Virus record (IMG/VR): IMGVR_UViG_3300028920_000023
DNA length: 64,000 nt
Reading direction: 5' to 3' (one strand)
Source of the DNA: a virus
Taxonomy: Duplodnaviria > Caudoviricetes
Part shown: positions 23,526 to 59,453 of the stretch, in pieces
How positions within the stretch are numbered: the stretch's first letter is position 1
Layout: the number at the start of each line of letters is the position of its first letter
Notes under the pieces: model-generated
The model's database searches: none
What the model was told of the DNA's origin: nothing
The model's input: the letters and a program-made list of their open reading frames with translations, nothing else
Program-made: the position numbers and the translations under genes

Positions 23526-23533
23526 TATTTTTA
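23526..23533 (-). promoter_or_regulatory. Candidate late promoter TAAAAATA upstream of portal
   Basis: YAAANATA instance before the AAGAGG SD. Confidence 0.45.
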
Positions 23534-24826
23534 TTTCAATTTAAGGTGAAACTTGGACAAAGGAGGCGTTTTGTACTTTCTATAACCATAAGTACTCACA
23601 AATTCGGACTCAACCATATGAGCAGAACGAGCCTGATTATACAACGTCTTCTTATGCAACTTCCAACCATCCTCATTAACATAGAAATATGAAGGGGCAG
23701 TATAACCATCAAAAACCCAATTCGAGGCCCTATAGATCGTACCAGCATGTCCAGCAGAAGGATCTGAAAAACTAAACAAATAACGAATATTAGAAGGAAC
23801 CAACTTGACACACCTACTTAGAAAATAAGAAGCAAGATTCTTATTCCTAACAAAAGGAACAATAACAAACCTACTCAACTCCATAGCTTCATCCTTCCTG
23901 CAATACGATACATAAACCTCCCTACGGATAGGATGAGAAAAAACAGCACCACAAACCAACTTATCCCCAATATAACCACCAACATAAAAGCCCCTTCTGC
24001 CAAGAGAACCCATATAATGATAATTGCACATCAAATATTGCATTTCATCTTCATTAGCAATTTTAATACTTAAATCTTTAAGATCAATTTTCTCTGACTC
24101 TTTATAAAAACCAACCCACCTCTTCAACAAAGCTTGCATCTTATTAAAATCAAATAACTGATGCTCCCAGACCGTCTTTAACTCATAACCATCGAGCGTA
24201 GAAACATACGAACTCTTAGCCTCATCTTTCCTGGCAACATCGGGTCTGCGGTGCACCCAGTGGCTATTGACTTCTAACAGCAAATCTGTCTCGTCACGAT
24301 GAATAAGGAAATCGAAAGTATATGGACCCAAAACAACTTGATGCTTATACTCAATATTCAGAGAATCAAGAATCTCCTGCATCCTTTTCTCGGTATTTGG
24401 AGTACTAGTGAGTTGCTTCACTAAGGATACAGCGTGAGCTTTTCTATAATTTTCATCCATCCAAGCCTTTTTAGCAGCCTCGGAACACTTCCTCCTGGAC
24501 TCCACATCCCGTACTGACTCAGAGTGTTTACTGCGGTATTTCTCGTCTTTCCATAATTCTTGGGACGATTTCTTTCTCTTATCGACATAATCTTTCTTTT
24601 CCCATATTTTCTTTTGTATCGTGGAGTGTTTCTTTTTTATGTCTGGTTTATTACAGGCACATTTATAACATAACCAGTCAATATTATTGTTTCTTATGCG
24701 TGATTTAACTCTGATGGTTAGGTCTCTGGTCGCATTACAATTATCACATTTGGCTACTATTTTAGGACGTTTTTGGGACAGGTCTACGTTGCCGAATTTT
24801 TGTTTGGTGAGATTCCAGTCGATCAT
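23531..24826 (-). CDS. Zn-ribbon/helical repeat + Vsr/DUF559-like nuclease + Mom-like GNAT fusion (copy 1)
   Basis: CDNC/CYKC; TEKRMQEIL...GPYTFDFL...LLEVNSHWVH; YHYMG...MELSRF...FSFSDPSAGHAGTIYRASNW; ATGA-coupled to terminase. Confidence 0.8.
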   Translation of the reverse strand: MIDWNLTKQKFGNVDLSQKRPKIVAKCDNCNATRDLTIRVKSRIRNNNIDWLCYKCACNKPDIKKKHSTIQKKIWEKKDYVDKRKKSSQELWKDEKYRSKHSESVRDVESRRKCSEAAKKAWMDENYRKAHAVSLVKQLTSTPNTEKRMQEILDSLNIEYKHQVVLGPYTFDFLIHRDETDLLLEVNSHWVHRRPDVARKDEAKSSYVSTLDGYELKTVWEHQLFDFNKMQALLKRWVGFYKESEKIDLKDLSIKIANEDEMQYLMCNYHYMGSLGRRGFYVGGYIGDKLVCGAVFSHPIRREVYVSYCRKDEAMELSRFVIVPFVRNKNLASYFLSRCVKLVPSNIRYLFSFSDPSAGHAGTIYRASNWVFDGYTAPSYFYVNEDGWKLHKKTLYNQARSAHMVESEFVSTYGYRKYKTPPLSKFHLKLK

Positions 24827-27800
24827 CTCATTATGGGTCCGCCGTTATCTAATCGTATGGTTTTGATTTTCTGTGTTATCATGAATCTAGGATCGACCAA
24901 TTTAGAATTAGCTGGCAATCCTCCGAGGGTCATAATATATTCGTTGAATTCTTGTTCTGGGGTCTTATGTTCTGATAGTTCTGGGCATAAAATAACAGGA
25001 GCTAGAGCGTGTATTCCACCAGAATCGTTCAGTTGGCCTATTTGCCGTGCTGCGTCAGGTGGGTCTATTACGTCGTTGTTTAGGCTGGGCACATTGTGCA
25101 CAGGTATTAGTGAGGCGTGATCCGATATCACAGCCTCCGGAAGTCCAACCAGGGACATCCCCAGAGCCATTACGATATCACTGTGATTTCCTGGACCTGG
25201 AACGTGTCCAATTTTATTTCCACCTAGGTGTATAAAGATGTGCAACTGGTCTACGAGTTCTGCGCTGTATACTCTAACTCCATCCTCTACTCCGATGTTG
25301 TCTAATATTGCTTTTACTAGCGTTGGTTTGTGTGCAGGTGAAGTTGGAAAACCGACTTTGGCTGTTCTTTGTCCTTTGGCGGTCTTCATGTGGTAGACGT
25401 TGGAATATCCGAAGTTATTGTAGAATTGCTGGCATACGGGTATCCCGAGTCCTGTTCTTTCTGGGACCACAAAGGCATTGTTGAAGTATCTGGCCAAATA
25501 ATCCATCATACACATTAGGAAATACGGCTGAACTTGCATGTTCAATTCTGCTACTTGTTCACAGTCATTACAGTCGATTACTACTATTGCTGATAGGTCG
25601 TTATCTTCTCCGCTGGAGATATCGACGCCCATACTGTAGGTGTGGCCTGGTGCGCCTGGCCGTATTATTTTGCCTTGTTCTATGAGGTCTGGCTGCGGTT
25701 TGATTGGACGCTTCCAGATTTTGAGTTTACCATCGAAGTCCAGTTCTAGTTCTTCGCTTGTGGTTGGGTGTATATAGGGGACTTTTCCTACTACGAAGTA
25801 TTTCCGTCCCCCGTTGTTATCCAGGTCATCTACTAGGTATAACAGTTGATTTCTTGATAATACTGTGTTTCCGGTTCCTATGAATTCTGCTAGGATTTCT
25901 TGTCTAAAGAGGTGTGCTTCTCCTCTTTGCTGTAGTTGTCTGTATTGTTCTTCTAGCCAGGGTGAGTAGTATGGTCCCCATTTTTCTTTTTCTTCTTTTG
26001 TTCTGCATTTCCGGATTCCGTCTGTGGGGCATATTCTTCTTTTTTGACCTGTTTTTTGATCCTCGAATTCTATGGACCAGTCCATGTCCCACCAATTGAC
26101 TATGATGGGGTTAAAGTCGTTTCTTTTCTTTTCAGCGTCACTCCATGTTACTTCATACCAATTCCCTACTCCGTTACATGTACTAATAACTATCACAGAT
26201 CCACCATGTTGCAGTGTATTATGACTTATAAAACCGTTTGCTATGTAGGTATTGTTTTCGGGCACGCTAAGATCTAGAGTTTTTGCTTTACTTTCTCTTA
26301 TAGACTTAACTTTCATAGGCACTAGGCCATTACTTAGTATTCTACCTAGAGCAGTATCTTTGTTATCATCACAGAGCAGGTCTATTGCTCTGTTATATGG
26401 TATTCTATTATTCCTTTGATAGTATCTGGTTATAGATTTTTTATTTGATTTTCTACAAAATTCTTCAACTGCTTTATGTCGTATTGATAATCCGTGTTCC
26501 TGTTTAGGCGCATCTAGTATTACGTTCTTTCTATCTGATATGAATCCTATTTCGTTTATAAATCTTATATAATTTCTACGATCTATTGTTGATAATCTGT
26601 ATGATTTCTTGCTGTTGGTAAATCCTCCTCTTCCTTCAGATGTTCTAGTTATAATGCCCAATGAGAACAGAGATGATCTCACTTGGTCTATAAGAACCTT
26701 CGATACAGACGAACAAGTAATTCTTTTATTTGATGACGAGCCATCGGCTTCAAAATAACCTCTCAAAAATGCACATATGATTTCTGGGCCACTTGACAAA
26801 ATCGCCTTTGGGATTCTAGCGTGATATACATCTTCCTTAATCAATCCATGCCTAAACATCCAGTCTACAAATGGGGCATTATAGACTTTGATATCAACCG
26901 TATGACACGCATATTCGGTTTTTGGATTTAGTCCGATATTCTTTAGTTTAATTATTAATTTTTCATGTAGCTGTTTGTCTGTAGGACAGCAATGCGGTTT
27001 TATTCTTTTCGGTCTAGAGACGGAGGAACTTCCGTCTCCGATATAATAACCTATAATCTCAGCAAGATCAACGGTCATTATATCTGGCAATTTTTGTGGC
27101 TTATGATGTACACAAGATGGACAAATATATTTTTCTTTCTTCGATTTCCGTAAAGTTATAACCTTGAGAACAAATTTTTTGTAGCACTTATGACATATTA
27201 CCTCAGTATGATCTCTGTTCTTAAGGTTCCCAAGATTAATTAGGTCACATTCCGGCTCTACAAAAACATGTGGCTTTCCTCTACACGTATTTGGCAATAA
27301 GCAAACATAATCATCCTGTTTTAATTCTCTTAATTCTTTCCAGACATATTCTCCTTGTTCGTTAAATATTCTAAGTTTATGGTGTGGTGTTGCTTCAAAT
27401 TCATAACCCAATTCGGTCTCAATATGTAAAGTATTGGTATATCCACTATTGAAGATAGCAGAACATTGCTTATCTCCAGAGTCCGTAGGGAGATCGATAT
27501 CTAGATTCCCAAATTCCCCAATTCCAGTATTGTCATTAAGCATCTCCTTTATCTCTATCAAACCATCGTTTGTAGAGATAATTGAATCGTCAGAAACACA
27601 AGGCCAGCCTGCTGCCCACATCTCATCCATGTGCGGCATAAATCCAGCTTCATCAATAATATTCAAAGATGAAGAATTAGATCTCAGTGTTTCTTTAGAG
27701 GATGTCAGACTACTGATCTGTGATCCATTCGGAAACACGATCTCATGTTCATTGTATGTGGGTGGTGGATCGCCGTAGATCTGATGGAATTCTTTAGGCA

Positions 27801-29127
27801 GGTTATCATAGACGAATTTGATGTTCTTATCTAGGAAGGCTTTGGCGTCTCTGTCTCTTTTTGAGACGATTAAGATGGTTTTATGGGAGAAGAACATTCC
27901 ATTCCATAGGGCATATGCCCCGGATAATGTGCTTATGCCGCAATTATGAACAACGGCTCCATCTACGATATAATTATGAGTTTCTGGAATCGTAAGATCA
28001 TAAACTTCACTTTCTGTATCTACTGGTTTAACAGATTTAATCTGACCCTTAATTCTATTAAATATAAATCCTTTTGTGATTTCTTTTCTTGGTTTTTTGC
28101 CAAATATTCCTATATATTTTGTAAATAATTCAAAATCTCTACCACCTATAATCCTTAATTTAGATATGGTTCCCTTACCAGGATAAATTTTAGAATTTAT
28201 CCCGAATCTACTAAGAAGTTGTTTTAATTGATATAATATTATAACAGATTCCTGAGCTATTCCAGCTTCATTACAATCCTTACCGCTATACCACCCATCT
28301 CCAGAGAACATCCTGTTTATCAAAGTAGCTACTGAGTCATTGTTCCAAGAAAAAACTTCTGCTGGTATTCGTTTTTGCTTGCCTGTTTGTTTGTCTATTC
28401 CAAGAGAACGCAACCATTTTCTAGCTTCAGAATGATTTGTCTGCATCCTATAATTATTGCTATCTGGAGCAAACGAACTAGAATGTGGCCTGATCTTCAG
28501 ACGAACACCAAATTTTAATTCAAAATGCTTCTGGAATTCCAAAAGATATTTCCATCTCTTATTTGTAAAATTAATCCATCTACCATAACATCCGTCCGTG
28601 ATCAAATACCCCAACAAAATGGCATCGGACGTCATCCGGTTATTATAACAGCAGATGTCCGATACCTCTACAAGTACATCGTTTAAAGACAGATCAATTG
28701 CTTTTACCCAACCTTTGCTTGTTAAGAATTGATGATCGCCCGTACATATCGACCTATGGCCAGTTTTAGTCCTAACTTCGTAAAGATTCGTAGAAATTCC
28801 ATTATTATGAACATCAGATACTTTCTGCACATCGAGACGGTTGTCTTTGAGAGTATATACGATATCACCCTTCCTAATTTCTTCGATAGGACAAGGTCCG
28901 TTTGGCGTCCATACCATACTCCCTTTCACGAAGCACTGCCTCGTTTTTCTGTAAACGTTAAATCTGTATTTTTTGAAATCTTCTAAGCTCTTCTTTTGGT
29001 AATCAAATAATCCAAATGGTAAAATACCAGCAACCGGGTGTTTGATCTTACAAAAATTCTCTATAAAATACATTGGGCTTCTCTGGCAACGCCGGAGAAG
29101 ATCGGACATCAACTTTTTTCTATTCAT
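24823..29127 (-). CDS. terL: Terminase large subunit with two inteins (about 642 aa spliced)
   Basis: Walker A region KTRQ|CGIST, Walker B IIDEAGF, VISTCNG, nuclease MGVDISSG. Confidence 0.93.
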   Translation of the reverse strand: MNRKKLMSDLLRRCQRSPMYFIENFCKIKHPVAGILPFGLFDYQKKSLEDFKKYRFNVYRKTRQCFVKGSMVWTPNGPCPIEEIRKGDIVYTLKDNRLDVQKVSDVHNNGISTNLYEVRTKTGHRSICTGDHQFLTSKGWVKAIDLSLNDVLVEVSDICCYNNRMTSDAILLGYLITDGCYGRWINFTNKRWKYLLEFQKHFELKFGVRLKIRPHSSSFAPDSNNYRMQTNHSEARKWLRSLGIDKQTGKQKRIPAEVFSWNNDSVATLINRMFSGDGWYSGKDCNEAGIAQESVIILYQLKQLLSRFGINSKIYPGKGTISKLRIIGGRDFELFTKYIGIFGKKPRKEITKGFIFNRIKGQIKSVKPVDTESEVYDLTIPETHNYIVDGAVVHNCGISTLSGAYALWNGMFFSHKTILIVSKRDRDAKAFLDKNIKFVYDNLPKEFHQIYGDPPPTYNEHEIVFPNGSQISSLTSSKETLRSNSSSLNIIDEAGFMPHMDEMWAAGWPCVSDDSIISTNDGLIEIKEMLNDNTGIGEFGNLDIDLPTDSGDKQCSAIFNSGYTNTLHIETELGYEFEATPHHKLRIFNEQGEYVWKELRELKQDDYVCLLPNTCRGKPHVFVEPECDLINLGNLKNRDHTEVICHKCYKKFVLKVITLRKSKKEKYICPSCVHHKPQKLPDIMTVDLAEIIGYYIGDGSSSVSRPKRIKPHCCPTDKQLHEKLIIKLKNIGLNPKTEYACHTVDIKVYNAPFVDWMFRHGLIKEDVYHARIPKAILSSGPEIICAFLRGYFEADGSSSNKRITCSSVSKVLIDQVRSSLFSLGIITRTSEGRGGFTNSKKSYRLSTIDRRNYIRFINEIGFISDRKNVILDAPKQEHGLSIRHKAVEEFCRKSNKKSITRYYQRNNRIPYNRAIDLLCDDNKDTALGRILSNGLVPMKVKSIRESKAKTLDLSVPENNTYIANGFISHNTLQHGGSVIVISTCNGVGNWYEVTWSDAEKKRNDFNPIIVNWWDMDWSIEFEDQKTGQKRRICPTDGIRKCRTKEEKEKWGPYYSPWLEEQYRQLQQRGEAHLFRQEILAEFIGTGNTVLSRNQLLYLVDDLDNNGGRKYFVVGKVPYIHPTTSEELELDFDGKLKIWKRPIKPQPDLIEQGKIIRPGAPGHTYSMGVDISSGEDNDLSAIVVIDCNDCEQVAELNMQVQPYFLMCMMDYLARYFNNAFVVPERTGLGIPVCQQFYNNFGYSNVYHMKTAKGQRTAKVGFPTSPAHKPTLVKAILDNIGVEDGVRVYSAELVDQLHIFIHLGGNKIGHVPGPGNHSDIVMALGMSLVGLPEAVISDHASLIPVHNVPSLNNDVIDPPDAARQIGQLNDSGGIHALAPVILCPELSEHKTPEQEFNEYIMTLGGLPANSKLVDPRFMITQKIKTIRLDNGGPIMR
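26218..27600 (-). mobile_element. LAGLIDADG-containing intein (461 aa) in terminase, with an internal Zn ribbon
   Basis: AGWP|CVSDDS...FISHN|TLQH; IIGYYIGDG and RGYFEADG; CHKC...CPSC insert. Confidence 0.88.
27943..28935 (-). mobile_element. LAGLIDADG-containing intein (331 aa) in the terminase Walker A motif
   Basis: KTRQ|CFVKGS...AVVHN|CGIST; LLGYLITDG and MFSGDG. Confidence 0.9.
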
Positions 29128-37302: not shown

Positions 37303-38064
37303 CTATATTATTTTTGCGCACTTCTCATACTCCTTTATTAAACTACATAAATTCGAAATATCCTCAATAAACTTATCCTTTCTAGATTCAACACACATGT
37401 TCCTAGGAGAAGGATGATAGATCGGATATACATCCACACCAAACTTATCAGAATGAACGATACTACCTAAATGATTACTCATCTTCTCATCGTCAAAAAA
37501 CACATCGAAGCCGACGGCACCCAATGTGATCACCAGAATAGGTCTCAATAAAGTCAACTCAATTTCTAAGAAAGGACGACAACGTCCAGATTCCTCAATA
37601 GAAGGTTTCCTGTTTTCCGGAGTATAACATTTTACAGAATTCGTAATATAGAAATGATCTCTGGAAAGACCGAATTTTTCTACGGTTTCATTAAAAAATT
37701 TCCCAGCATCCCCGACAAATGGAATTCCGCACTGACATTCGTTATAACCGGGATTCTGCCCAACTATAAACCATCTCGAGACGTTCTTTGTGCTAAAAAC
37801 ATGCGGGTCGAAATCTTGTTGTCTACCAAGGCTACACATTGTGCAAGCATGGACAGTATCGCCCAATGGTCCCAACATTTTCTCTACTCTATGCATTTTA
37901 TTGCCTTTATTACATTGAAGTTTACTCGGATCCCAATGGAAGTTAAGTAGCTCCTGCCACATAGCTTCGTCCCTGGCGTCTGCCTCTTCTTTGAGACGCT
38001 TAAACTCTTCTTGTTCTTGTTTTTTCTTTTTGCGTTTGGCAAGGAAATCAGCAGGAAGTTTCAT
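37303..38064 (-). CDS. Family 4 uracil-DNA glycosylase ([4Fe-4S])
   Basis: CTMC, IVGQNPG, PFVGDAG, ITNSVKC, CRPFL, YHPSP. Confidence 0.88.
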   Translation of the reverse strand: MKLPADFLAKRKKKKQEQEEFKRLKEEADARDEAMWQELLNFHWDPSKLQCNKGNKMHRVEKMLGPLGDTVHACTMCSLGRQQDFDPHVFSTKNVSRWFIVGQNPGYNECQCGIPFVGDAGKFFNETVEKFGLSRDHFYITNSVKCYTPENRKPSIEESGRCRPFLEIELTLLRPILVITLGAVGFDVFFDDEKMSNHLGSIVHSDKFGVDVYPIYHPSPRNMCVESRKDKFIEDISNLCSLIKEYEKCAKII

Positions 38065-38638: not shown

Positions 38639-39532
38639 TTAGAGAGCGTCGTCACCATAACACCGTTCATCCATCTGCTCCCCAGTCCTCATATTAACCC
38701 ACACCTTGCGCTCATGATCACACCAAATCGCAAGAGTCGAACCATTATCTCGTTTTTGCCACTCCTTAACCCACACCCGAGATTGCCTCGTCTTCCACTC
38801 ATTATAAGACGGTTTATCGTCAAGTATAGATCTAACCTCAGCACAGCCCTCCTCGTCATCAACAGCTCCAAAAACAGCATCAAAACTTTCCTTGTAAGGC
38901 TGCATCGGATCAACAAAATATTCATCAACCCCAATTTCAGCAAGACGTCCCGTAAACTCAGCCGCGAAAGATTCGCTCCACACAGGAAGAATAGGGCTCA
39001 CATTCACATGAACCCTAATACCAGCTTCCTTAAGCTCACGTACAGCCTTAAATCTCCGTTCCGTTAGGATCGGAACTGGTTCTAACTTGGTCAAGACTGA
39101 TCTGGGGAAAGGCGTAATGGTGAAATGGACCCTAGCCCGAGGTAGCTGTTTGATCAAGTCAATATCATCAAGCACAAAAGGTGATCTTGTGAAGATGCCA
39201 ACCTTGTTCAGTTTGCCGTGCTTCAAAATAATTTCCAAAGCAGCGCTGGTCAATCTGCTTTTGCGTTCTTGGGGTTGATAGGGGTCAGTCATCGTACCAA
39301 AGACCAACCTCATGCCATCATATTTCGGCAATTCCTTCACGAGTTTGTCTCGGATATGGTCCCTTGTCCGTACGAACTCCCCCCAGTCGTTGTCTTTGTC
39401 CTTGATGAAGAACCGCACATAACAGTATGTGCAGCCAAATTGACACCCCACATATGGATTCAGACAAATATCGTAATTCTTGAATCCAGATTTGGAGATG
39501 AGTGTGCCTCTTCTTGCCGTGACAACCTGCAT
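38639..39532 (-). CDS. Radical SAM protein, spore-photoproduct-lyase-like family
   Basis: LNPYVGCQFGCTYCY (Cx3Cx2C), GTMTDPYQPQE, FTRSP. Confidence 0.85.
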   Translation of the reverse strand: MQVVTARRGTLISKSGFKNYDICLNPYVGCQFGCTYCYVRFFIKDKDNDWGEFVRTRDHIRDKLVKELPKYDGMRLVFGTMTDPYQPQERKSRLTSAALEIILKHGKLNKVGIFTRSPFVLDDIDLIKQLPRARVHFTITPFPRSVLTKLEPVPILTERRFKAVRELKEAGIRVHVNVSPILPVWSESFAAEFTGRLAEIGVDEYFVDPMQPYKESFDAVFGAVDDEEGCAEVRSILDDKPSYNEWKTRQSRVWVKEWQKRDNGSTLAIWCDHERKVWVNMRTGEQMDERCYGDDAL

Positions 39533-39598: not shown

Positions 39599-40201
39599 CT
39601 ATAACTCTTCCCTAATACCTTCATAATAAACCGCCCTCTTCTCAACACCACAAACAAAACGATACAAGAGACCCTCAGCAGACTTTACCAAATTCCGGCC
39701 CTCAGAAACTTCCTTGACAAAACCCTTTGGTAACTCAACATCCTCATCCTCAGTCTCCGTCTCAATCTCCGCAACAACACCAACCTTATCCTTCGGAGAC
39801 CGAATATCATCCACGACCCAATCACCATAACGATACCGAGTCTTCTCCATCCTAGTAGCCTTAATAGTCTCAGGCCACAACTTATCAAACATTTCTGAAG
39901 TAATAAAAGTCTCAGCCTCATCACTTTTCTTATAAAACTTGCACGTAATACTATACTCCGGGTCGTTCCCCTTGGACTTCTCCCTCCTAATACGCAAACT
40001 AAAACCAGGCTTATCAAAGAGCAAAGCCTGTTTGATCTCGGAAGGTTTCCCAACGCCATTCGGGACCTCCTTCAATTCAAACCTCTGCTCATATTCCTTA
40101 GTAACATCACCAGTAACCTCTTCTAAAATCGAAGAATATAACAGAGGAACAACATCTGGGAATTTATTATTGACCTCTTGGATATGTTCAGAAATATTCA
40201 T
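39599..40201 (-). CDS. CYTH-like triphosphatase/cyclase
   Basis: EYEQRF, SLRIRR, EAET, MEKTRY, VAEIE...LPKGFVKEVS. Confidence 0.75.
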   Translation of the reverse strand: MNISEHIQEVNNKFPDVVPLLYSSILEEVTGDVTKEYEQRFELKEVPNGVGKPSEIKQALLFDKPGFSLRIRREKSKGNDPEYSITCKFYKKSDEAETFITSEMFDKLWPETIKATRMEKTRYRYGDWVVDDIRSPKDKVGVVAEIETETEDEDVELPKGFVKEVSEGRNLVKSAEGLLYRFVCGVEKRAVYYEGIREEL

Positions 40202-40228: not shown

Positions 40229-40423
40229 ATGACAAAATTTGAGAAAAAACTAGACAAAATACTATCAGAAATGCTCGGGACGCATATAAAAGCACCAACA
40301 CGAGCATTCCGAAGAGCAGGACTAACACTCAGAATAGGCAAAAGATTCGACGGACCGCCAGAAACACGATACAAGAAAATGATGACAACAAATTTCAAGA
40401 ACCAGATGACATTCTACATATAA
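40229..40423 (+). CDS. Small basic hypothetical protein (possibly leaderless)
   Basis: 64 aa; ATG 5 nt after CAAATATA, no SD. Confidence 0.5.
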   Translation: MTKFEKKLDKILSEMLGTHIKAPTRAFRRAGLTLRIGKRFDGPPETRYKKMMTTNFKNQMTFYI

Positions 40424-42150
40424 TATATAAACCTTTTCTTCTCATACCCCCATACCTTGTGATATCCGAACTTCTCACAATATTCTGATTCAGGCATTCT
40501 CATCTTGGATGCCTTATTCCACAGTGTTTTCTTATGGCAGACATACCCGAGATGATCTACATACCAGTAACTAGGTTTTACTATGCCGTCCAATCTCCAG
40601 TTAGATGCTTTATATATAGTTCCATGATGATTAAAAGTTAGATCTGCAAATGTAATTAAACATTTTATATCTGAGCGGTAAGATTTTATGGCTTTAATAG
40701 ATCGTGAAATCATAAAACTAGCAAAATTTTTCTTCTGATAAGAAGGATGTATACACAACCTTGTAAGTTCCAACATTTCTTTTGGTTTAAATCCTTGCTT
40801 ATCCGCAGATTCTTTGCGAGTTAAGGGACCATAACAAACGACTCCGATTAAAATCTCGTCACAATAGAAGCCAATATAGGTCCCTCTTTTACCTAATCTA
40901 CCAGAATAATGATATTTTCCGACGAACAAAGTAGCTTCGTCCACATCAACTGGCCTAATTACAACATCTTTAAATTCAAAATCTGTCTTCTTTACTTCCC
41001 CAATATTCAACCAATATCGGATTGTGTCCATGACCCTATCTTGGTTATCAAATTCATGCTCCCATATATACTTGATATCATACTTTGGATGATACCTTTT
41101 GGTGAATGTGGCTTTAGACCGATCTTTTGAAACAGTATGTGGTAAAGAATGCCAATAATCTCCATTTATATCAATCAATAAAGGCCTATGTATACCAAGT
41201 GATTTTTGTGGATCTATCCTACAATCCCAAATATAATAACCAACTTTGCACATCTCTGATGTATCGTCGTGATATTCTATCCCAAGATCTGCTAACATGC
41301 TGTAGAATACCTTCTGGATCAAACTTGTTCTAGGTTGGTGTAACCTGATTATTGCCATTTTCTCCCTAAATGATGATGAATTAATGATCTCTAACATTTT
41401 GTCTCTGTATTCCGGATCTTGCCATCTCTTTTTAGATGCCAGAGAAGCTTTTTTCCTCATAACATCATCACGCCACATTTCCCGTGATTTTTTAGCAATT
41501 CGTTCCCATGGTATCGTCTCTTTCCATTTACGGACCCATTCTGGATCAGAAAATAAAAGTTTATTTCGATCAGAACTTAATTTAGCCATCTTCTTTTTAT
41601 ATTCTGGATTAAGCCAGGGCATCTTACCATATTCTGACATCTGTTTACGAAAATCATCAGTAACCAGAAAATCTCTCCAATTTCCACGCATATTCCTCCA
41701 GAAAGTTGAAGAAGATTCACTCAACTTCTTCTTAAATTCCGGAGTATAGATGCCATCAAATTTCCCTTCTTTATGTGCTCTGGAACCAGAGCAAGACTGA
41801 CACGAAAAACGACCATCATTTCTACGTTTATTAGCTAAATAATTTCTGTATTTAAGAGTAATTTTACTCTTGCAAACACTACATTCTCTGGTGATAATAT
41901 CAGAATGCAAAGTCCTCCCAGAATCCTTGGCCTTCTTGGCCAACTTCCTACCAATTGCTTTTCCATTTTCTTTGACTTTACAAGAATGACAAACATATTC
42001 TTTTCTTGATAAAGTATTGACATAATATCTTATTCGCATTACCTTAATCTCTCGTATAGAACCACATCTCACACAACCCAAAGGCACTTTATCATGACTG
42101 GTAAGGTTCTCTATCGACTTTATCTCAAATATTCCTTTTGATGTCAACAT
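40414..42150 (-). CDS. Zn-ribbon/helical repeat + Vsr/DUF559-like nuclease + Mom-like GNAT fusion (copy 2)
   Basis: Two CxxC...CxxC units, W-x-(D/N)-P-E-Y repeats; YIWDCRI...IDINGDYWH...IWEHEF; YHYSG...LELTRL...ITFADLTFNHHGTIYKASNW. Confidence 0.8.
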   Translation of the reverse strand: MLTSKGIFEIKSIENLTSHDKVPLGCVRCGSIREIKVMRIRYYVNTLSRKEYVCHSCKVKENGKAIGRKLAKKAKDSGRTLHSDIITRECSVCKSKITLKYRNYLANKRRNDGRFSCQSCSGSRAHKEGKFDGIYTPEFKKKLSESSSTFWRNMRGNWRDFLVTDDFRKQMSEYGKMPWLNPEYKKKMAKLSSDRNKLLFSDPEWVRKWKETIPWERIAKKSREMWRDDVMRKKASLASKKRWQDPEYRDKMLEIINSSSFREKMAIIRLHQPRTSLIQKVFYSMLADLGIEYHDDTSEMCKVGYYIWDCRIDPQKSLGIHRPLLIDINGDYWHSLPHTVSKDRSKATFTKRYHPKYDIKYIWEHEFDNQDRVMDTIRYWLNIGEVKKTDFEFKDVVIRPVDVDEATLFVGKYHYSGRLGKRGTYIGFYCDEILIGVVCYGPLTRKESADKQGFKPKEMLELTRLCIHPSYQKKNFASFMISRSIKAIKSYRSDIKCLITFADLTFNHHGTIYKASNWRLDGIVKPSYWYVDHLGYVCHKKTLWNKASKMRMPESEYCEKFGYHKVWGYEKKRFIYYM

Positions 42151-53012: not shown

Positions 53013-53030
53013 TCAAAAATCCTCCTTTCC

Positions 53031-53038: not shown

Positions 53039-53076
53039 ATTTACATAAAGAAAGGAGACAGACGAAAGGAGAAAAT

Positions 53077-53487: not shown

Positions 53488-53488
53488 C

Positions 53489-53794: not shown

Positions 53795-53974
53795 AATGAA
53801 TACCAAAATACCAGGCATATGCGCCAAGAAACTCCACATAAAGAAAGACTGTGTAGAATTTAGAGGGAAACAGGGTGTTATATCAAACAGGAAATATCAG
53901 AATGTTTAGAGGAGTGTATAAATGAGGACAACAAGAATTCTGAGGTGTATGTAGTTGTGACAGTGAATCACAAG

Positions 53975-54046
53975 GCCACCATGGCTCAGCGGTAGAGCAG
54001 TGCCTTAGTAAGGCTCAGGTCGCAGGTTCGAATCCTGCTGGTGGCT
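53975..54046 (+). tRNA. tRNA-Thr, anticodon AGT; CCA not encoded
   Basis: Acceptor GCCACCA/TGGTGGC, D-arm GCTC/GAGC, anticodon stem GTGCC/GGCTC (one T-T mismatch) with loop TT-AGT-AA, T-arm GCAGG-TTCGAAT-CCTGC. Confidence 0.88.
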
Positions 54047-54048
54047 CT

Positions 54049-54555
54049 TTAAATTGGGAAGTGAAAACCACCCTCGCCATAAATAACACCATTAACTTCC
54101 ATCTTAAATACATCTAAAGAAATTATAGATTCCAATTTATTCTTTAATTCCGTTACGATAGCGTCAAGTTTTATATCAGGCTGTCGGAAACCATTATGTA
54201 GACTTGGCCCAGTCTTGAATTCGCCCGAGTTTATAACAGTTTGTGTTCCTACTGGAGTTCCGGGGACTAGGGTATCGGCCATAGCACAATAATGCCCACT
54301 TATTGTGAAACGGGCTGGTCTATCACCGAATTGTCTAGTAAATGCGACTGGTTTGGCGAAGTAAAAGGGCAGGTCCGTACATACGTCATCATCAAGCAGA
54401 GCTTCTATTGTGTCTGCTTGTCGTTCTAGATCACGTATGGTCTCGAACCTCTTGCCACGTATCGGAACCACCCTAAGATATGCCGTAAATGGGACCTTCC
54501 TGTCTAATGGCCCATGTGGCTTCGTTCCTGGTGCTTCTGATAGTTGTTGTGGCAT
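54049..54555 (-). CDS. Hypothetical protein
   Basis: 168 aa, convergent on the tRNA. Confidence 0.7.
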   Translation of the reverse strand: MPQQLSEAPGTKPHGPLDRKVPFTAYLRVVPIRGKRFETIRDLERQADTIEALLDDDVCTDLPFYFAKPVAFTRQFGDRPARFTISGHYCAMADTLVPGTPVGTQTVINSGEFKTGPSLHNGFRQPDIKLDAIVTELKNKLESIISLDVFKMEVNGVIYGEGGFHFPI

Positions 54556-54626
54556 TGGTACACCTTACCATTGTCGGAGCAACGTTTTTACACGTTGCTC
54601 CGTTTTTATTCAATGGTTAAGAGGCT

Positions 54627-55049
54627 CTACGCAGTGAAGGCGTCGCTGGGACAAGCAGTCCGAAGCTCGCCGTACAGATCGTCAGTGATGTTGGCCTCTG
54701 TCTTCTGGATTTGGATCTCACGGGGGTTGCCCGGAAGACGTACCGGAAGATCAAGACCGCTGACGCCTGCGTATACCTCGCTAAGGGTGCACGGATCACG
54801 CGGCGCAACAACAACCGGATGACCGTAACGGAACGCATCCGTCCGGAAACTGGAATCACGCGTCTCGACCACCAGATTCTCTTCACCTGGTACAGTCACA
54901 AGCACCTCATCGAACGGAGTCGTCAGATGCTTGATGGACGTGTGACGTCGGTTGTCGTACGTCGTCTTGGCTCTGCGAAAAACCGAGATCGTAGCGTTAG
55001 CTGGCTGAGCAGCACCCATCTTATAATCCTCCATTGCGTCAGGTACCAT
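54627..55049 (-). CDS. Hypothetical, possibly abundant virion protein
   Basis: 140 aa; GC-rich codon usage like the MCP; late-promoter candidate upstream. Confidence 0.65.
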   Translation of the reverse strand: MVPDAMEDYKMGAAQPANATISVFRRAKTTYDNRRHTSIKHLTTPFDEVLVTVPGEENLVVETRDSSFRTDAFRYGHPVVVAPRDPCTLSEVYAGVSGLDLPVRLPGNPREIQIQKTEANITDDLYGELRTACPSDAFTA

Positions 55050-55069
55050 TCCCTGACCAAGTTCAATAT

Positions 55070-55077
55070 TATTTTTG
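55070..55077 (-). promoter_or_regulatory. Candidate late promoter CAAAAATA
   Basis: Intergenic, upstream of 54627..55049. Confidence 0.5.
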
Positions 55078-55093
55078 CACGGCGTAGATATTC

Positions 55094-55741
55094 CTAGTGA
55101 ATATCAAGCGACAAAGGAGACTCGTCATACTCCTCATCATATTCCTCATCATAATCATCCTCGGGCAATCCACTGCGATCAATACCATCTCTATCAGTAG
55201 AACCTAGCCCGTGTTCCTCAGCCTTCTTGCTATCAAATTTCTTCTCTTTAAAGATACACTCATCCGGAATAGCCATAAACCTATCAACCGCATTTTTCAA
55301 CTTATGCCCAGTAGCACCAGGAAAACTACATAACTCAACACAGACACCCTTGCTCTTAAGAGACTCAACAAGAGGAGTCATCTCGTTATCCCCAGAACAA
55401 AGAACAACCGTATCCAACCGAGAAGCAATCTCAAGAACCTCTACAGCAATACCAACATTCCAGTTGCCTCTGGCCTTCATCTTCCCATCACTGCCTTCTC
55501 GGATCTTAAGTTCTTTGACCCGTAATTCATACCCAAACCTCTGCAGAGCCTCCTTGAAGGCGCTTTGATTGACATCGGCTTTCTGTACAATATAAGCTAT
55601 CGCCCTTACGAGTTGCCTTCCCTGGACCAACTCCTCAAGGAATTTACCATATTCGATTTTGCCACAATGAATAGTCTTTGCTGAATAGAACATATTTTGA
55701 ACATCAACAAAGATACCCACACGCTGTGAATTGTGTGTCAT
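55094..55741 (-). CDS. NYN domain (LabA/DUF88-like) protein
   Basis: RVGIFVDVQNMFY, LVRAIAY, VVLCSGDNEMTPLVESLKSKGVCVEL. Confidence 0.85.
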   Translation of the reverse strand: MTHNSQRVGIFVDVQNMFYSAKTIHCGKIEYGKFLEELVQGRQLVRAIAYIVQKADVNQSAFKEALQRFGYELRVKELKIREGSDGKMKARGNWNVGIAVEVLEIASRLDTVVLCSGDNEMTPLVESLKSKGVCVELCSFPGATGHKLKNAVDRFMAIPDECIFKEKKFDSKKAEEHGLGSTDRDGIDRSGLPEDDYDEEYDEEYDESPLSLDIH

Positions 55742-55750
55742 AACTTCCCC

Positions 55751-56281
55751 CTATAGGCTGCTGTACAGCCCCATTAACCAAGACATCAGTGCGAGCTTAG
55801 CCTTCCCAAGACCATTCTCAGACACCCACTGAACGTCCAAAAAACCATCAATGAAAACCGCCTTAACTGGTTCATTCACAACAATAACACGATCACAAAA
55901 GAACCAATCAGGGCACTTGTCCAAGGACATATCGATTTCTTCGCCATTCGGAAGTACATCCAGAGCTTCAGCAACCAGAATCTCATCCGGGTTCATCTCT
56001 ATAAAAGCAACCATATCATGTCTTTGATTTGGTCTCATTCTAGACGAAATAGGCAGATGCTTTTCATCCCCAATCGCACAATAAGCCAAAAACAATCTGG
56101 CTAAATGCTCTTTTCTCAGCTCATTAAAAGCCCATGACAAAGCACGAGACTCGTCCTGATGCTGTTTTGTCACATTCTCCGGATTCCCTCTCATATCCGC
56201 CAAAGAGGAGAGCCTCACACCCAGATTACGTAACAAAGCCAAGTTACGGATTATCCTACTCATTTTGTCCCCTGGAAACAT
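55751..56281 (-). CDS. Hypothetical protein
   Basis: 176-aa ORF. Confidence 0.65.
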   Translation of the reverse strand: MFPGDKMSRIIRNLALLRNLGVRLSSLADMRGNPENVTKQHQDESRALSWAFNELRKEHLARLFLAYCAIGDEKHLPISSRMRPNQRHDMVAFIEMNPDEILVAEALDVLPNGEEIDMSLDKCPDWFFCDRVIVVNEPVKAVFIDGFLDVQWVSENGLGKAKLALMSWLMGLYSSL

Positions 56282-56308
56282 AGTATCAATAGGAATATGT
56301 CGTGAAAA

Positions 56309-58003
56309 TTATCTAGGATCCACAGGAGGAACTTTGAAATTACCCTTCTCAAAAAAGAACTTCAGATCTAGATTACCGAGCGTGATCACCTCATTAAAAC
56401 CAACGCCAGGATTATCCGGATCAGCGATCTTATTAGTCTCAATAATATCATCAGCAGGACTGAAGATATTCGTATAAGAAACACCAGGAACATTCTGAAT
56501 CACATCATATAAATTAGACAAAAACATCCCAGTACCCATCTCAAAATTATTAATATTGAAGAAATCACGAATAGCATCTTCAACAGCCACCTTGACAGTA
56601 CCAGAATCAGCATTCCGGCTCATAACAACACTAGCCTCAACATCAATAGGCTTAATAGCACCATCATAAATCCTAACCTCATCCGTCAAAACATTAATAC
56701 GACTGAAGAAATCAACCAAACCCCTCTTAAGCCCACTATTAGGTCTGACAGGAGTCTGATCAGGACCCTCAGCAAGAGCATAAACCTCCACAATATTCCT
56801 ATTCACGAAATCATTCTGAATAATAGCAACACCTTCTGCAACAGAAGGAGCAGCCTGCACAGCCTTTACTACAGAATCAAAATCCTGATCAACACCCGTC
56901 CTGAGAGTACCAATAGCCTTAGAAACAGAACCAAAAACCGGATGTGTAAAATTCTTAGCTAAAATACCATAATCCTCACTAGTAACAGCATTCTCCTGCG
57001 TAGAGAACTCTCTAGGAGCACGCCTTTTAGCCTCCTCAACCGTCTCAGCATCAGTACCACCAGAAGACGGATTCGGATTCCTAAACAAAGCCTCAACAGC
57101 AGCATTATAAGGAGCATCAGGAATAACTGGTCTAGTATCGTTAATAGCACCAGAACCAATACGACCACGAATACCACCACCAGTACGATACCTAACCGTA
57201 ATCTCCTGGCCAGTTAAAGGAGACTTACCAGCAATATCATTGCCAAATCGAATCCTAGAGCTATTCTCCAGATGAATAACCTCGTATACCTCCTCATCTG
57301 CAGAAGCTTTCTCTAGGATATCGACCCTGCGCCATACAGACACTTCAGAACCAGTTCTAACCTCAACCCTAATCGGTTCATCAAGAACATTGCTTTGTTC
57401 AATCTCAATACTCTGATCTGTACCACCGGGCGAGCTAATAATGAGAGGAGTGCCGGTCTTACCCTCTATACCATAAGCTACAATGCCCTTCTTGCCAGCG
57501 GGTACAATTATATCCGAAGTAAAATCGCCCGGAGCCCTAAATATCTCATATGTCAAAGGCTGGTTATCCGGACCTCTAATACTAAAGCTAGTGCCAGCGG
57601 GGACTTTAATCTCAGTCGGCAGAGGAGAATCTATGGTAATCAGCACATCCACCGTAGCTGGGGTAGCTCTCTGGATATCTTGGTTGATTAACTGAAGGTG
57701 ATTGGATACGGCTTCTCTTGTCTGGGCCGTCGGCAGGAACGATTCGTCCACAAGAATGTCTGCACGTTGTGATAAATTACCGCCTATAAAAGACAGTAAT
57801 TCAAGAAGCATAATTATACCATTATTAGCTACATAATCATTAAAGTCATTCGGATAATACGTTCGTAAGTATTCGATACCAGCTCTGCGGAACGCCTCAA
57901 AATCAAGCGCGGAATAATCCAGCCTACGCAGCTCCGCAGGATCTAAAACGACACCGAATTCCTCCGGAGCATTAGGAAGTTTAAATAAAACATTCTCAGC
58001 CAT
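56309..58003 (-). CDS. Baseplate wedge subunit (gp6/J-like)
   Basis: LDYSALDFEAFR...DYVANNGIIMLLELL...ESFLPTAQTRE, IRFGND, SSGGTDAET.EE.KRRAP...AVTSEDY. Confidence 0.88.
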   Translation of the reverse strand: MAENVLFKLPNAPEEFGVVLDPAELRRLDYSALDFEAFRRAGIEYLRTYYPNDFNDYVANNGIIMLLELLSFIGGNLSQRADILVDESFLPTAQTREAVSNHLQLINQDIQRATPATVDVLITIDSPLPTEIKVPAGTSFSIRGPDNQPLTYEIFRAPGDFTSDIIVPAGKKGIVAYGIEGKTGTPLIISSPGGTDQSIEIEQSNVLDEPIRVEVRTGSEVSVWRRVDILEKASADEEVYEVIHLENSSRIRFGNDIAGKSPLTGQEITVRYRTGGGIRGRIGSGAINDTRPVIPDAPYNAAVEALFRNPNPSSGGTDAETVEEAKRRAPREFSTQENAVTSEDYGILAKNFTHPVFGSVSKAIGTLRTGVDQDFDSVVKAVQAAPSVAEGVAIIQNDFVNRNIVEVYALAEGPDQTPVRPNSGLKRGLVDFFSRINVLTDEVRIYDGAIKPIDVEASVVMSRNADSGTVKVAVEDAIRDFFNINNFEMGTGMFLSNLYDVIQNVPGVSYTNIFSPADDIIETNKIADPDNPGVGFNEVITLGNLDLKFFFEKGNFKVPPVDPR

Positions 58004-59453
58004 ATAATTCCTTTACAAATCTTATTCTTCTTCCAGTGTATATTTTTCTATATCCGAACTTTACTGCAAAATCTGATTCTTTCATCCTTATCGATCTAGC
58101 ATGAACATATAAAGTTTTCTTATGTATAATATGCCCGTTGGAATCTACATACCAATAACTAGGCTTGTTACAACCGTCTTCCATCCATCCAGACGCTTTA
58201 TAAATGGTCCCCAAATGTTGGAAGGCCTCATCAGAAAATGCCAATAGATATTTCACATATGTTCTGTTCTTTTTTATAAACTTCACACATCTGGACAAAA
58301 ACCAAGACGATAAATTATGAGAATAATACCCAGGATTAAGACAGAATTTATTTAATTCTAATACCTGGTGAGGCTCTGCCCCTAACCTATCAGCGCTCTC
58401 TTTTCTAGTAATCGAGGAAAAAGAAGATACACCAATAAGTATAGTACGATGATAAATTCCAAAGTATGTTCCTCCTCTCCCACCTTTTGTCATATAATGA
58501 TACTTCGATAAAAATTCATCGCCCTCCTTACGATTAATTACGCAGAAATTTATAGATTCCTTGTCAATATGTCTTATTTCCTCCGTCTTTCCCAAGATTT
58601 CGAATATTCTATCTCTAATTCTATTCTTAGCTAAGAATTCGTGTTCCCATAATATCAACAAATCGTAATCCTTCGCCAATTTCTCATTATAGAACTTCAT
58701 AAATTTCTTATCTTTCTCAACCCGTTCCGGTATAAACCTGTGATGGTAATCTCCATTTACGAATATAATACACGGCCTATCGGACAAGATCATCGCATCA
58801 CATCTATAAGAACCAAAAGATAATTTTCTAATATCTTCAGGCTCCTTATAATATTCTAAACCTAAATCATCTAGTATCGAATATAAAATTAATTGATTAG
58901 AACTGATCCAATTGTGGTTGTTGCTTATTCTTTCCATCCCAGAAAACCAAGCTTCTCTAAATTTTTTAGTTCTCCATAATTCTTTCATCTTAACTGACGC
59001 AGATCTTCTCATCTCCTCTGTATAGGGCTTCCTCAACTTCATCTTTGCTGCTTTAACAGGATCACAATATGCTTTATTAACAGCATCGGATATTTTACGT
59101 CTAAAATCCTCGGTCACTAATGATAAAGACATTTTACGACTTAGTTCGCGGTTTTCCTGTCTACGCTGAGTAGAGGCCGAAGCACTGTGGGCATTCTTTC
59201 TTTGCTCTTCTGTAAGAGATAACAATTTCATAATACTTTTACTCTTATCAATCTTACTAATCATATTGTGTCTATATTTCTCATCTTTCCATAGTCTCTT
59301 TAAATTCTGGGAATTTTTATTTCCTATTTTCTCATACATACATTTTCTGCAATTTTTCGTACCTTTCGATCTTCTATTATATAGAGCCCTCTTAGTTAAC
59401 TCGATATTCCTATTGCAATTAGGGCAAGAAATAATCACCTTCTCAGACATCAT
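57996..59453 (-). CDS. Zn-ribbon/helical repeat + degenerate Vsr/DUF559-like nuclease + Mom-like GNAT fusion (copy 3)
   Basis: CPNC...CRKC, LWKDEKYR; SYRCDAMI...IIFVNGDYHH...LWEHEF; YHYM...LELNKF...LAFSDEAFQHLGTIYKASGW; overlaps both neighbours. Confidence 0.8.
   Translation of the reverse strand: MMSEKVIISCPNCNRNIELTKRALYNRRSKGTKNCRKCMYEKIGNKNSQNLKRLWKDEKYRHNMISKIDKSKSIMKLLSLTEEQRKNAHSASASTQRRQENRELSRKMSLSLVTEDFRRKISDAVNKAYCDPVKAAKMKLRKPYTEEMRRSASVKMKELWRTKKFREAWFSGMERISNNHNWISSNQLILYSILDDLGLEYYKEPEDIRKLSFGSYRCDAMILSDRPCIIFVNGDYHHRFIPERVEKDKKFMKFYNEKLAKDYDLLILWEHEFLAKNRIRDRIFEILGKTEEIRHIDKESINFCVINRKEGDEFLSKYHYMTKGGRGGTYFGIYHRTILIGVSSFSSITRKESADRLGAEPHQVLELNKFCLNPGYYSHNLSSWFLSRCVKFIKKNRTYVKYLLAFSDEAFQHLGTIYKASGWMEDGCNKPSYWYVDSNGHIIHKKTLYVHARSIRMKESDFAVKFGYRKIYTGRRIRFVKELYG

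Follow-up and report, generated by a model that had tools for sequence, protein, structure and literature searches.

Why would a phage carry, three times over and each time between conserved late genes, a gene that joins a nuclease to a putative DNA-modification domain? The question is raised by a 64,000-nucleotide stretch of DNA (the window) from a marine-sediment jumbo phage of ~355 kb, in which three ORFs, all on the minus strand, had been predicted to share this architecture:

23531..24826, minus strand: copy 1, predicted free-standing Hef-type homing endonuclease gene with a Mom domain, 431 aa, at the terL–portal junction
40414..42150, minus strand: copy 2, like architecture with two Zn ribbons, 578 aa, directly after the tail sheath gene
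57996..59453, minus strand: copy 3, like architecture, 485 aa, at the junction of gp25 and the gp6-like Baseplate_J wedge gene

ORF calling returned the same coordinates as the original prediction, and the flanking genes were likewise identified as those for a T4-type portal, terL, tail sheath, gp19-type tubes, gp25 and Baseplate_J/gp6. The terL gene carries an intein and owes its identification to 49–56% matches to terminases of related phages. The start/stop overlaps (ATGA) of copies 1 and 3 were verified in the sequence, with copy 3 overlapping the gp6 start by 8 nt. Copy 2, on the other hand, had been placed between sheath and tubes, which is only half accurate: it directly follows the sheath gene, but three genes (weakly CYTH-like, radical-SAM and family-4 uracil-DNA-glycosylase-like) separate it from the tail tubes.

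The three proteins are 32–33% identical to each other overall and follow the single layout that had been proposed: one or two Zn ribbons lead into W-x-D-x-E-Y-R helical repeats and a Vsr-like nuclease, and a Mom domain forms the C-terminus. All of the motif blocks listed for them (YHY, ELxR/K, F(S/A)D...H.GTIY(K/R)AS(N/G)W and PSY(F/W)YV...HKKTL...ES(E/D)...GY.K) could be found in the alignment. The N-terminal modules are as follows:

24407..24763, minus strand: copy 1 module, a 4-Cys Zn ribbon (residues ~22–58) and five consecutive ~15-residue helices (61–140)
41302..42150, minus strand: copy 2 module, residues 1–283, two 4-Cys Zn ribbons and helical repeats (WLNPEYK, WQDPEYR)
58899..59453, minus strand: copy 3 module, residues 1–185, one Zn ribbon and helical repeats (WKDEKYR, WRTKKFR)

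Copy 1 has its CxxC motifs at residues 27 and 53 and copy 3 at 10 and 35, while copy 2, with two ribbons, has four of them, at 26, 54, 90 and 117; each of the three proteins also contains W..D/N.E/K-Y/F-R/K repeats. The helices of copy 1 carry W..D.(E/K)Y(R/V) motifs at residues 75, 92 and 122, and AF2 modeling of this copy (pLDDT 90.9) yielded β-hairpins together with helices spanning residues 61–140. The module presumably binds DNA. Its mean pairwise identity is only 23%, compared with 45% for each of the catalytic domains. A relationship to NUMOD3, suggested earlier, was not supported, as there was no Pfam NUMOD match at E ≤ 1.

The middle domain belongs to the Vsr/DUF559 type, as anticipated, and both sequence and fold identify the homing endonuclease I-Bth0305I as its nearest solved relative:

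24107..24400, minus strand: copy 1 Vsr-like (EDxHD) nuclease, residues 143–240
40996..41301, minus strand: copy 2 Vsr-like nuclease, residues ~284–385, catalytic set E D D N H D
58587..58898, minus strand: copy 3 Vsr-like nuclease, residues ~186–289, catalytic set E D F N H D

For copy 1, the best Foldseek match was the I-Bth0305I catalytic domain (3r3p; E = 4.5e-5, TM-score 0.80, rmsd 2.9 Å, 28% identity), followed by a DUF559-like protein and then by Vsr. Its residues E159, D172, E185, N187, H192 and D201 correspond to E170, D196, E206, N208, H213 and D222 of I-Bth0305I. Copy 2 matched the same structure in a PDB sequence search (E = 0.03), with a residue-level alignment over IDINGDYWH...SKD. 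In copy 3 the extra acidic position is occupied by Phe, the same as in Vsr. The EDxHD catalytic residues are thus intact in all three copies, and the D/E/N(Q,H)/H/D set is retained in nearly all of ~55 homologs.

I-Bth0305I, the EDxHD prototype and a proven dimeric homing endonuclease (PMC3239194), shares with the window proteins both the E-D-(E)-N-H-D constellation and a bipartite organization, in which an N-terminal DNA-binding region precedes the nuclease. It differs in being intron-encoded, in having a NUMOD/HTH-like N-terminus and in ending after the nuclease, without a GNAT/Mom domain. Hef and Hef-like proteins, by contrast, are homologous in both the nuclease and the C-terminal GNAT/Mom-like domain; hhalign aligned a Campylobacter Hef-like homing endonuclease across the two domains with 99.4% probability. 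Therefore, the three genes do not form an isolated three-copy family but represent a branch of a known kind: the large, named and widespread Hef-like (EDxHD) homing endonuclease family of cultured phages. Members include Hef of phage U5 and proteins of Campylobacter phages CP8/CPX, Acinetobacter phages Acj9 and 133, Proteus phage Pm5461, Bacillus phage AR9, Pseudomonas phage Cassandra and Lak phages. Hef-like genes are found in 424 phage records at classic homing sites, and U5 Hef cleaves nrdB (PMC2988022). Like the window genes, they are free-standing and lie between or inside conserved genes, for example between nrdA and nrdB, between gp24 and gp23, or in split polymerases. N-terminal DNA-binding modules are variable: the Hef clade has HTH, DUF723 or DUF7487 in place of the Zn ribbon and W-x-D-x-E-Y-R repeats of the window clade. 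In addition, copy 1 is matched by PHROG 3339 'homing endonuclease' and by PADLOC HEase, and the PHROG 3339 match covers residues 8–481 of copy 3. We are highly confident that the three ORFs are mobile homing endonuclease genes of the Hef type and that they carry a Mom-family domain. Among the papers that could be searched, none connects Hef with Mom.

Are the genes in fact mobile? All three junctions vary in occupancy among related genomes, in keeping with free-standing homing endonuclease genes and contrary to the possibility that all relatives carry them at identical sites. The terL–portal junction is occupied in two relatives (G005 and L126) and empty in two others (G001 and G002), and of 21 related loci, 20 lack an insertion between gp25 and gp6. 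At the sheath junction, orthologous occupants were found in ~17 of 71 scored relatives and the remaining 54 are empty; on the sheath tree this distribution requires a minimum of 11 changes, and the two members of each of the sister pairs L026/L027 and L086/L089 differ in state. Each of the three window copies belongs to a lineage that follows its insertion site, and decay is seen as well, in the form of a truncated remnant and a copy interrupted by a stop. An alternative is that the genes are immobile, domesticated or decaying passengers inherited vertically, their patchiness being solely due to repeated loss. Occupancy changes on trees may equally be losses or gains, and this reading would also accommodate the remnants as well as the orthologs P0002 and P0004, which occupy gp25–gp6 with the identical 8-nt overlap, as expected from descent. 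Nor were empty-site alleles found in contigs of the three metagenomes holding the phage, a result uninformative for rare variants. However, there are at least 10 well-supported state changes among the 71 genomes, some of them between sisters ~90% identical in DNA; the sheath junction hosts two unrelated lineages, and at terL–portal there is one sequence from the post-sheath clade. Conservation of both the nuclease and the Mom active sites and a foreign base composition (the GC content of copies 2 and 3 is below that of neighboring genes) point the same way, making strictly vertical inheritance highly improbable.

The C-terminal domain had been likened to Mom of phage Mu, and Pfam, PDB sequence searches and fold comparison all assign it to the Mom-family GNATs:

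23534..24106, minus strand: copy 1 Mom-type GNAT, residues 241–431, PF25680 at 252–403 (70.2 bits)
40417..40995, minus strand: copy 2 Mom-type domain, residues ~386–578, PF25680 at 396–576 (108.6 bits)
57999..58586, minus strand: copy 3 Mom-type domain, residues ~290–485, PF25680 at 304–454 (89.2 bits)

All three scores (70–109 bits) are well above the Pfam Mom cutoff of 27.1 bits. The crystal structure of Mu Mom (8bv8) was the best Foldseek match for copy 1 (E = 1.5e-10) and was also matched by copy 2 in the PDB sequence search (E = 3.8e-5); the Mu Mom motifs quoted in the original prediction agree with the actual Mu Mom sequence. Copies 1 and 2 retain all of Mom H58, Y59, R111, S124, D149 and Y159, whereas the set in copy 3 is H Y K S D Y, with a lineage-wide Lys at position 111. 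The same R111K substitution drastically lowers Mu Mom activity (PMC13219725). Across ~55 homologs nearly all members retain the set, S124 and D149 being nearly invariant. Mu Mom itself differs from the window domains in being a standalone dimer of 231–241 aa and in having R151 and W48. W48 is missing from the window domains, in which R151 is replaced by S/T/A and His is present at position 154; six standalone phage Mom-like proteins also lack R151 and have His154, a residue common to most other phage Mom-like proteins. The Hef clade, unlike the window clade, is below the Pfam cutoff and has lost Y59 (L/I/M/F) and often D149 (D149N), although H58, R111 and Y159 are kept throughout. Retention of the mainstream Mom catalytic residues is what distinguishes the window branch.

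Mu Mom uses Gly-tRNA to modify dsDNA, by aminoacylation of adenine N6 followed by on-base rearrangement (PMC13219725). Since the full residue set is near-invariant and agrees with the one found in standalone Mom-like proteins, retained catalysis is the simplest reading, and the window domains are probably active on DNA. A non-modifying domain, such as a DNA clamp, a base-flipping recognition module or a charged-tRNA/CoA sensor gating the nuclease, seems unlikely. In that case the conserved residues would reflect ligand binding rather than catalysis on DNA, and the pattern in the Hef clade, with H58, R111 and Y159 kept but Y59 and often D149 lost, may indicate a non-Mom role common to the wider family. 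Because this sister clade includes the characterized endonuclease Hef despite these losses, Mom-type catalysis is probably not needed for homing in general, which also speaks against the reading preferred below. R111K in copy 3 would fit such a role, as would the high conservation in the window clade of the segment corresponding to the HTH-like insertion of Mom, proposed to bind the DNA major groove (PMC13219725). Yet retained catalysis accounts most simply for the near-invariance of the set, S124 and D149 included. A dimerization module is not required either, because the I-Bth0305I nuclease domain dimerizes alone, and W48, a residue of the Mu dimer, is not conserved.

Our preferred reading, to which we assign a probability of about 45%, is that these are selfish Hef/EDxHD genes lodged between conserved late genes, with a Mom domain that marks their own site. 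The fast-evolving array of Zn ribbons and helical repeats would bind a long, lineage-specific DNA target. The Vsr-like nuclease, probably dimeric like I-Bth0305I, would then cut a co-infecting relative at its unoccupied junction, as suggested by the intact catalytic residues and by what has been published on the activity of Hef and I-Bth0305I. Recombinational repair would copy the gene into the cut junction, and the pattern expected from this step, site-specific lineages with sporadic occupancy, is observed. The Mom-type GNAT, as a putative charged-tRNA-dependent adenine-N6 modifier, would be brought by the shared DNA-binding module to the nuclease's own locus and mark one or more adenines within the recognition site or close to it. 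In a carrier, the target would be part of a flanking gene that remains intact, and the mark may spare this genome from its own nuclease.

Such self-protection is plausible, though we hold it only tentatively. Conventional free-standing homing endonucleases gain immunity by target-site polymorphism, so an epigenetic mark would be unnecessary. Moreover, cutting and marking of one site by a fused enzyme would be in kinetic conflict, and the R111K change might cripple the domain in the copy 3 lineage as it does in Mu Mom. If self-protection is true, each gene would encode both halves of a 'cut-and-mark' element in one polypeptide, in analogy to restriction-modification enzymes of Type IIG. In Type IIG/IIL enzymes such as MmeI, a DNA-recognition module and a nuclease likewise share a polypeptide with a DNA-modifying domain that could protect 'self' DNA. 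The analogy is functional only and implies no membership: the folds are unrelated, and Type IIG/IIL enzymes methylate in a SAM-dependent manner, recognize short sites and are cellular defense genes rather than homing elements.

Alternatively, the Mom domain could be beneficial cargo that modifies adenines genome-wide and shields the phage from host restriction, repaying it for keeping a selfish gene. Restriction evasion is the known role of Mu Mom (PMC13219725), and standalone phage Mom-like proteins show the same conservation of the catalytic set. Several paralogs whose DNA-binding modules differ would broaden the range of protected motifs, which corresponds to the 'multiplied modification system' considered originally; in line with this, related genomes have three to six divergent copies, and the copies stay unchanged in three metagenome samples. 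Still, we regard this explanation as doubtful. Copy number in complete relatives ranges from six (98% complete) down to zero in a close relative that is 99% complete. Tethering to a module for long targets favors local over global action, and conservation of the nuclease site would be unneeded were modification the main function. Finally, lineages track single insertion sites: 11 changes of site were counted, compared with a mean of 18 after shuffling, and none of the 200 shuffles matched the observed value.

Three ORFs of one architecture had been predicted in the window, and we found all three at exactly the predicted positions. They are listed here together with the neighboring genes that matter for their interpretation.

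Copies of the family and selected neighboring genes
23531–24826, minus strand: copy 1, ORF of 431 aa
40414–42150, minus strand: copy 2, ORF of 578 aa
57996–59453, minus strand: copy 3, ORF of 485 aa
20101–23502: portal gene with two inteins, 1133 aa (Intein_splicing at two stretches plus LAGLIDADG_3)
24823–29127: terL with two inteins, 1434 aa (Intein_splicing at two stretches plus LAGLIDADG_3)
37303–38064: family-4 UDG-like gene, between copy 2 and the tail tubes
38639–39532: PA0069/SPL-like radical-SAM gene, between copy 2 and the tail tubes
39599–40201: weak CYTH-like gene, between copy 2 and the tail tubes

The copies are collinear, with an overall identity of 32–33% in the alignment. Each has one or two four-cysteine Zn ribbons (CxxC at residues 27/53 in copy 1, 26/54/90/117 in copy 2 and 10/35 in copy 3), repeated W..D/N.(E/K)(Y/F)(R/K) helices, a segment with W-E-H at its end and, following it, a C-terminal domain of ~190 residues with all the expected motif blocks. 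The overlaps proposed between copies 1 and 3 and adjacent start and stop codons are real ATGA overlaps; copy 3 also overlaps the gp6 start codon by 8 nt. The neighbors were likewise named correctly as portal, terL, tail sheath, gp19-type tubes, gp25 and the Baseplate_J/gp6-like wedge, except that copy 2 does not directly adjoin the tubes, from which three genes separate it. This CYTH-like, radical-SAM and UDG-like trio is DNA-repair/modification-flavored. The closest relatives, too, have the UDG-like gene behind that of the sheath. The portal is of the T4 type, and both it and terL carry two inteins; the corresponding intein-free proteins of relatives have 582–641 aa (portal) and 632–676 aa (terL). 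Since Pfam detects the inteins alone in terL, its identity rests on 49–56% matches to terminases of related phages. Inteins also occur in terL of the related phages G005 and L126 and in the portal of G002. The virion module of the window is heavily colonized by selfish elements. The minus-strand tail/baseplate module encloses a solitary tRNA-Thr (AGT) gene in plus orientation (53975–54047). In a contig of the marine-sediment run X1, a low-confidence joint (54043 to 54734; shorter side 22 nt) begins at the 3′ end of this tRNA gene.

The middle domain had been assigned to the Vsr/DUF559 type, and structural modeling bears this out. Using an AF2 model of copy 1 residues 1–245 (pLDDT 93.5), Foldseek returned as the best match the catalytic domain of the homing endonuclease I-Bth0305I (3r3p; TM 0.80, rmsd 2.9 Å, 28% identity), followed by the DUF559-like 3hrl and then by E. 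coli Vsr (1vsr/1cw0), consistent with a Vsr-like, PD-(D/E)xK-derived fold. The label of homing endonuclease is shared by a PADLOC model and by PHROG 3339, the latter spanning residues 8–481 of copy 3. In I-Bth0305I, the EDxHD residues are E170, D196, the extra acidic E206, N208, H213 and D222 (PMC3239194), and their equivalents in copy 1 are E159, D172, E185, N187, H192 and D201. The same positions read E, D, D, N, H, D in copy 2 and E, D, F, N, H, D in copy 3, so that variation is confined to the accessory acidic position, where Vsr itself has Phe. The predicted EDxHD active site therefore looks intact in all three copies, and a decay of the nuclease sites from one paralog to the next is not supported. 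No Pfam NUMOD domain matched the copies at E ≤ 1; a Zn ribbon and the repeated helix motif are present instead.

The C-terminal domain had been proposed to resemble phage Mu Mom, a GNAT-fold enzyme, and several lines of evidence agree. The Pfam Mom family (PF25680, curated cutoff 27.1 bits) matches copies 1, 2 and 3 with 70.2, 108.6 and 89.2 bits, respectively, and copy 2 directly matches the sequence of the Mu Mom chain 8bv8 (E 3.8e-5). With an AlphaFold2 model of copy 1 built from 46 homologs (pLDDT 90.9), the Mu Mom crystal structure 8bv8 was the first Foldseek match (E 1.5e-10, TM 0.63 normalized to Mom), ahead of generic GNATs. Moreover, the Mom-specific insertion, aligned to Mu residues 170–215, is present and conserved in the clade to which the window's copies belong.

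According to Silva et al. 2026 (PMC13219725), Mom moves glycine from Gly-tRNA(Gly) onto the adenine N6 of dsDNA, after which an on-base rearrangement of the adduct yields 6-NcmdA. This mechanism supersedes the 2020 acetyl-CoA/iron model, with the same residues still important. The study found R111, S124 and R151 essential in Mu Mom, strong impairment by R111K, H58A, Y59A, Y159A and W181A, a requirement for the HTH-like insertion, and dimerization via W48 (PMC13219725). Cooperation of the radical-SAM neighbor with Mom, as in Elp3, was considered and dropped, because the 2026 mechanism needs no radical chemistry and because such a gene lies near a family member in just one of the 80 related sheath loci searched. 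In that locus (L029), the radical-SAM gene is 65% identical to that of the window. A main role of the Mom domain as a dimerization module was also rejected, since the I-Bth0305I nuclease domain dimerizes by itself and Mu W48 is not conserved.

We then compared the residues that matter in Mu. Copies 1 and 2 retain H58, Y59, R111, S124, D149 and Y159, and copy 3 differs only by R111K. An alignment of 62 sequences (metagenomic homologs, Mu Mom and copies 1 and 2) shows the complete set in 51. Mu R151 is not kept, being S, T or A in the three copies, and it is also missing from six standalone Mom-like proteins of other phages. These six share a His at Mu position 154, which is invariant in the window's clade; R151 therefore looks specific to Mu and not family-defining. 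As far as sequence comparison goes, the window's C-terminal domain matches the mainstream Mom family, with Mu the outlier at position 151, and its active site looks intact. Mean pairwise identity across the family is 23% in the N-terminal module versus 45% in each catalytic domain, which is what one would predict for diverging DNA specificity combined with two preserved catalytic functions. R111K in copy 3 could be read as a sign of a non-catalytic domain with a DNA-binding or sensor role; with the mainstream Mom residue set kept in the clade, we regard this as unlikely.

How do these proteins relate to known families? A family profile aligned with Campylobacter CPX gp132, annotated as a Hef-like homing endonuclease, at an hhalign probability of 99.4% over 269 columns, covering the nuclease and the C-terminal domain to its end. 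CPX gp132 in turn matches 424 cultured-phage records over both domains, including T4-like phages, AR9, phiYS40, Lak and phiKZ-like phages; one of these records is annotated as 'nuclease/acetyltransferase'. The Hef-like genes occupy classic homing sites, such as nrdA–nrdB, gp24–gp23 and a split DNA polymerase. Hef itself is a member of the EDxHD family (PMC3239194), and passages in two reviews describe cleavage of nrdB by Hef of phage U5 (PMC2988022, PMC3322345). In the Hef clade, the C-terminal domain falls below the Pfam Mom cutoff, Y59 is replaced by L, I, M or F, and D149N is frequent, whereas the window's clade retains a mainstream Mom domain. The latter clade comprises 580 clusters at 50% identity (E ≤ 1e-30), and both domains are present in all of the best 150 of the 580. 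Judged by these similarities, it is a large metagenomic sister branch of the Hef clade. The window's genes thus belong to a branch of a known selfish gene family. Our literature search found no paper linking a Mom or GNAT domain with Hef or homing endonucleases; the family joins two literatures, on Hef-like nucleases and on Mom.

The original prediction also held that the genes are mobile, and the three loci are indeed occupied in some relatives and empty in others. Of 21 related IMG/VR loci, 20 have an empty gp25–gp6 junction, the closest locus (gp6 identity 61%) among them. P0002 (56%) and P0004 (45%), the nearest homologs of copy 3, occupy this junction in other phages known from metagenomes and show the 8-nt overlap as well. 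A family member immediately follows the sheath gene in 17 of 71 scorable relatives and is absent there from the other 54. On the sheath protein tree, no fewer than 11 changes are needed to explain these states, and branches with good support force 10 of these changes; such occupancy trees cannot tell gains from losses. Two sister pairs have opposite states: in L026/L027 (~80% DNA identity), 53 bp in one correspond to ~2.25 kb in the other, and in L086/L089 (~90%), the interval measures 211 versus 1,825 nt, with homology ending at the sheath stop codon and picking up again at the tube start. The terL C-terminus used as a query against viral contigs gave no match, and the terL–portal junction was read from the whole records of relatives. 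G005 (occupant 46% identical to copy 1) and L126 have a family member there, and the gap is too short for such a gene in G001 and G002. The number of Pfam Mom matches ranges from none in a 99%-complete relative of 388 kb to six in a 98%-complete one of 354 kb. In addition, the GC content of copies 2 and 3 is 34–35.5%, against 43–49% in their neighbors. This sporadic, site-specific occurrence between conserved genes upholds the reading of mobile genes. Extra DNA without a Mom match was also seen at other junctions in relatives, ~0.7 kb before gp25 in L024 (4839–5561) and ~1 kb between terL and portal in G004 (G004:C1, ~368000–369100), and may represent other selfish genes.

Contigs of three marine-sediment runs, in which rare variants are not visible, contain occupied alleles only, with no joints at the copies. 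The runs come from three studies and their contigs are identical to the window across copies 1–3; in two of them there are contig holes over 18–38 kb.

In a tree of the nuclease-plus-Mom region, copy 1 clusters with the gene at the G005 terL–portal junction (support 100/100), copy 3 with the genes located at gp25–gp6 (100/99) and copy 2 with genes that follow the sheath (100/99); the tree also contains a separate pre-sheath clade and a second, unrelated post-sheath clade. Site labels change 11 times on this tree against a mean of 18 after shuffling, and none of 200 shuffles was as low. Since site tracks lineage, copies 1–3 are old site-specific lineages and not recent duplicates of each other. 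P0028 (L126, 5001–6488), a member of the post-sheath lineage, seems to have changed its insertion site, as it lies between terL and portal behind a 59-aa ORF. Decay occurs as well: before the sheath gene of L038 (7559–7900) only the last ~100 residues are left, and the post-sheath copy of L047 (8036–10171) is broken by a single in-frame TAA (8993–8995). It is nonetheless improbable that the window's own genes, with their seemingly intact active sites and variably occupied junctions, are immobile relics.

The three ORFs are real, and their domain identities and the mobility reading are right. The explanation we propose, with a probability of roughly 30%, is a single-polypeptide cut-and-mark homing element, in which one DNA-binding module would serve both a nuclease and a charged-tRNA-dependent adenine aminoacylase, guiding the two to a single locus; the carrier's intact target would be covalently marked and spared, and unmarked co-infecting genomes would be cut and converted. 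By analogy with characterized relatives, the N-terminal array would bind a long DNA target, the Vsr-like domain would cut empty alleles, and repair would copy the gene into the cut allele. The Mom domain would be catalytically active, modifying adenine with the help of charged tRNA at the locus to which it is tethered together with the nuclease. Self-protection of the carrier's intact target is the role that we favor for this domain, if tentatively. Against it, the Hef clade, home of the characterized endonuclease Hef, lacks a full Mom site, and copy 3 has R111K. Furthermore, immunity usually comes from target polymorphism: sequence differences at the target are generally held to keep a homing endonuclease from cutting the genome that encodes it. 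The domain could alternatively be anti-restriction cargo acting genome-wide, which we find doubtful for a domain tethered to a DNA-binding module.

If true, the cut-and-mark proposal would describe an epigenetic form of homing-endonuclease immunity that follows a new principle, in which the nuclease protein itself sets a covalent mark on the DNA. The same protein would be a naturally occurring enzyme for site-directed DNA hypermodification, with a repeat array that might be programmable, and no earlier natural example would exist of tRNA-dependent hypermodification of the Mom type being directed to particular sites. If the Mom domain is inactive or generic, the window's genes would merely be more members of a known selfish gene family, and the value of the finding would rise if site-directed DNA hypermodification were demonstrated. 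As Mom chemistry was solved only in 2026, assays for cut-and-mark now exist.

The helical module itself varies in length. A family member of 1272 aa (L029, 10940–14758, the same as L112, 4238–8056; also in G005) has 22 tandem W-(E/A)-D-P-E-F-R repeats, one every ~30 residues, which makes the module an expandable array, possibly a modular DNA-reading domain. An expandable tandem helical-repeat array for DNA binding may be of interest for engineering. Partial architectures also occur among relatives. Mom-only proteins are encoded in L116 (3025–3885, 286 aa) and L122 (347–1945, 532 aa, where the N-terminus is a different one). In L064 (7436–8971) and L097 (10895–12733), the proteins have the nuclease but a C-terminus barely matching Mom. 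Family members may thus have lost or exchanged domains.
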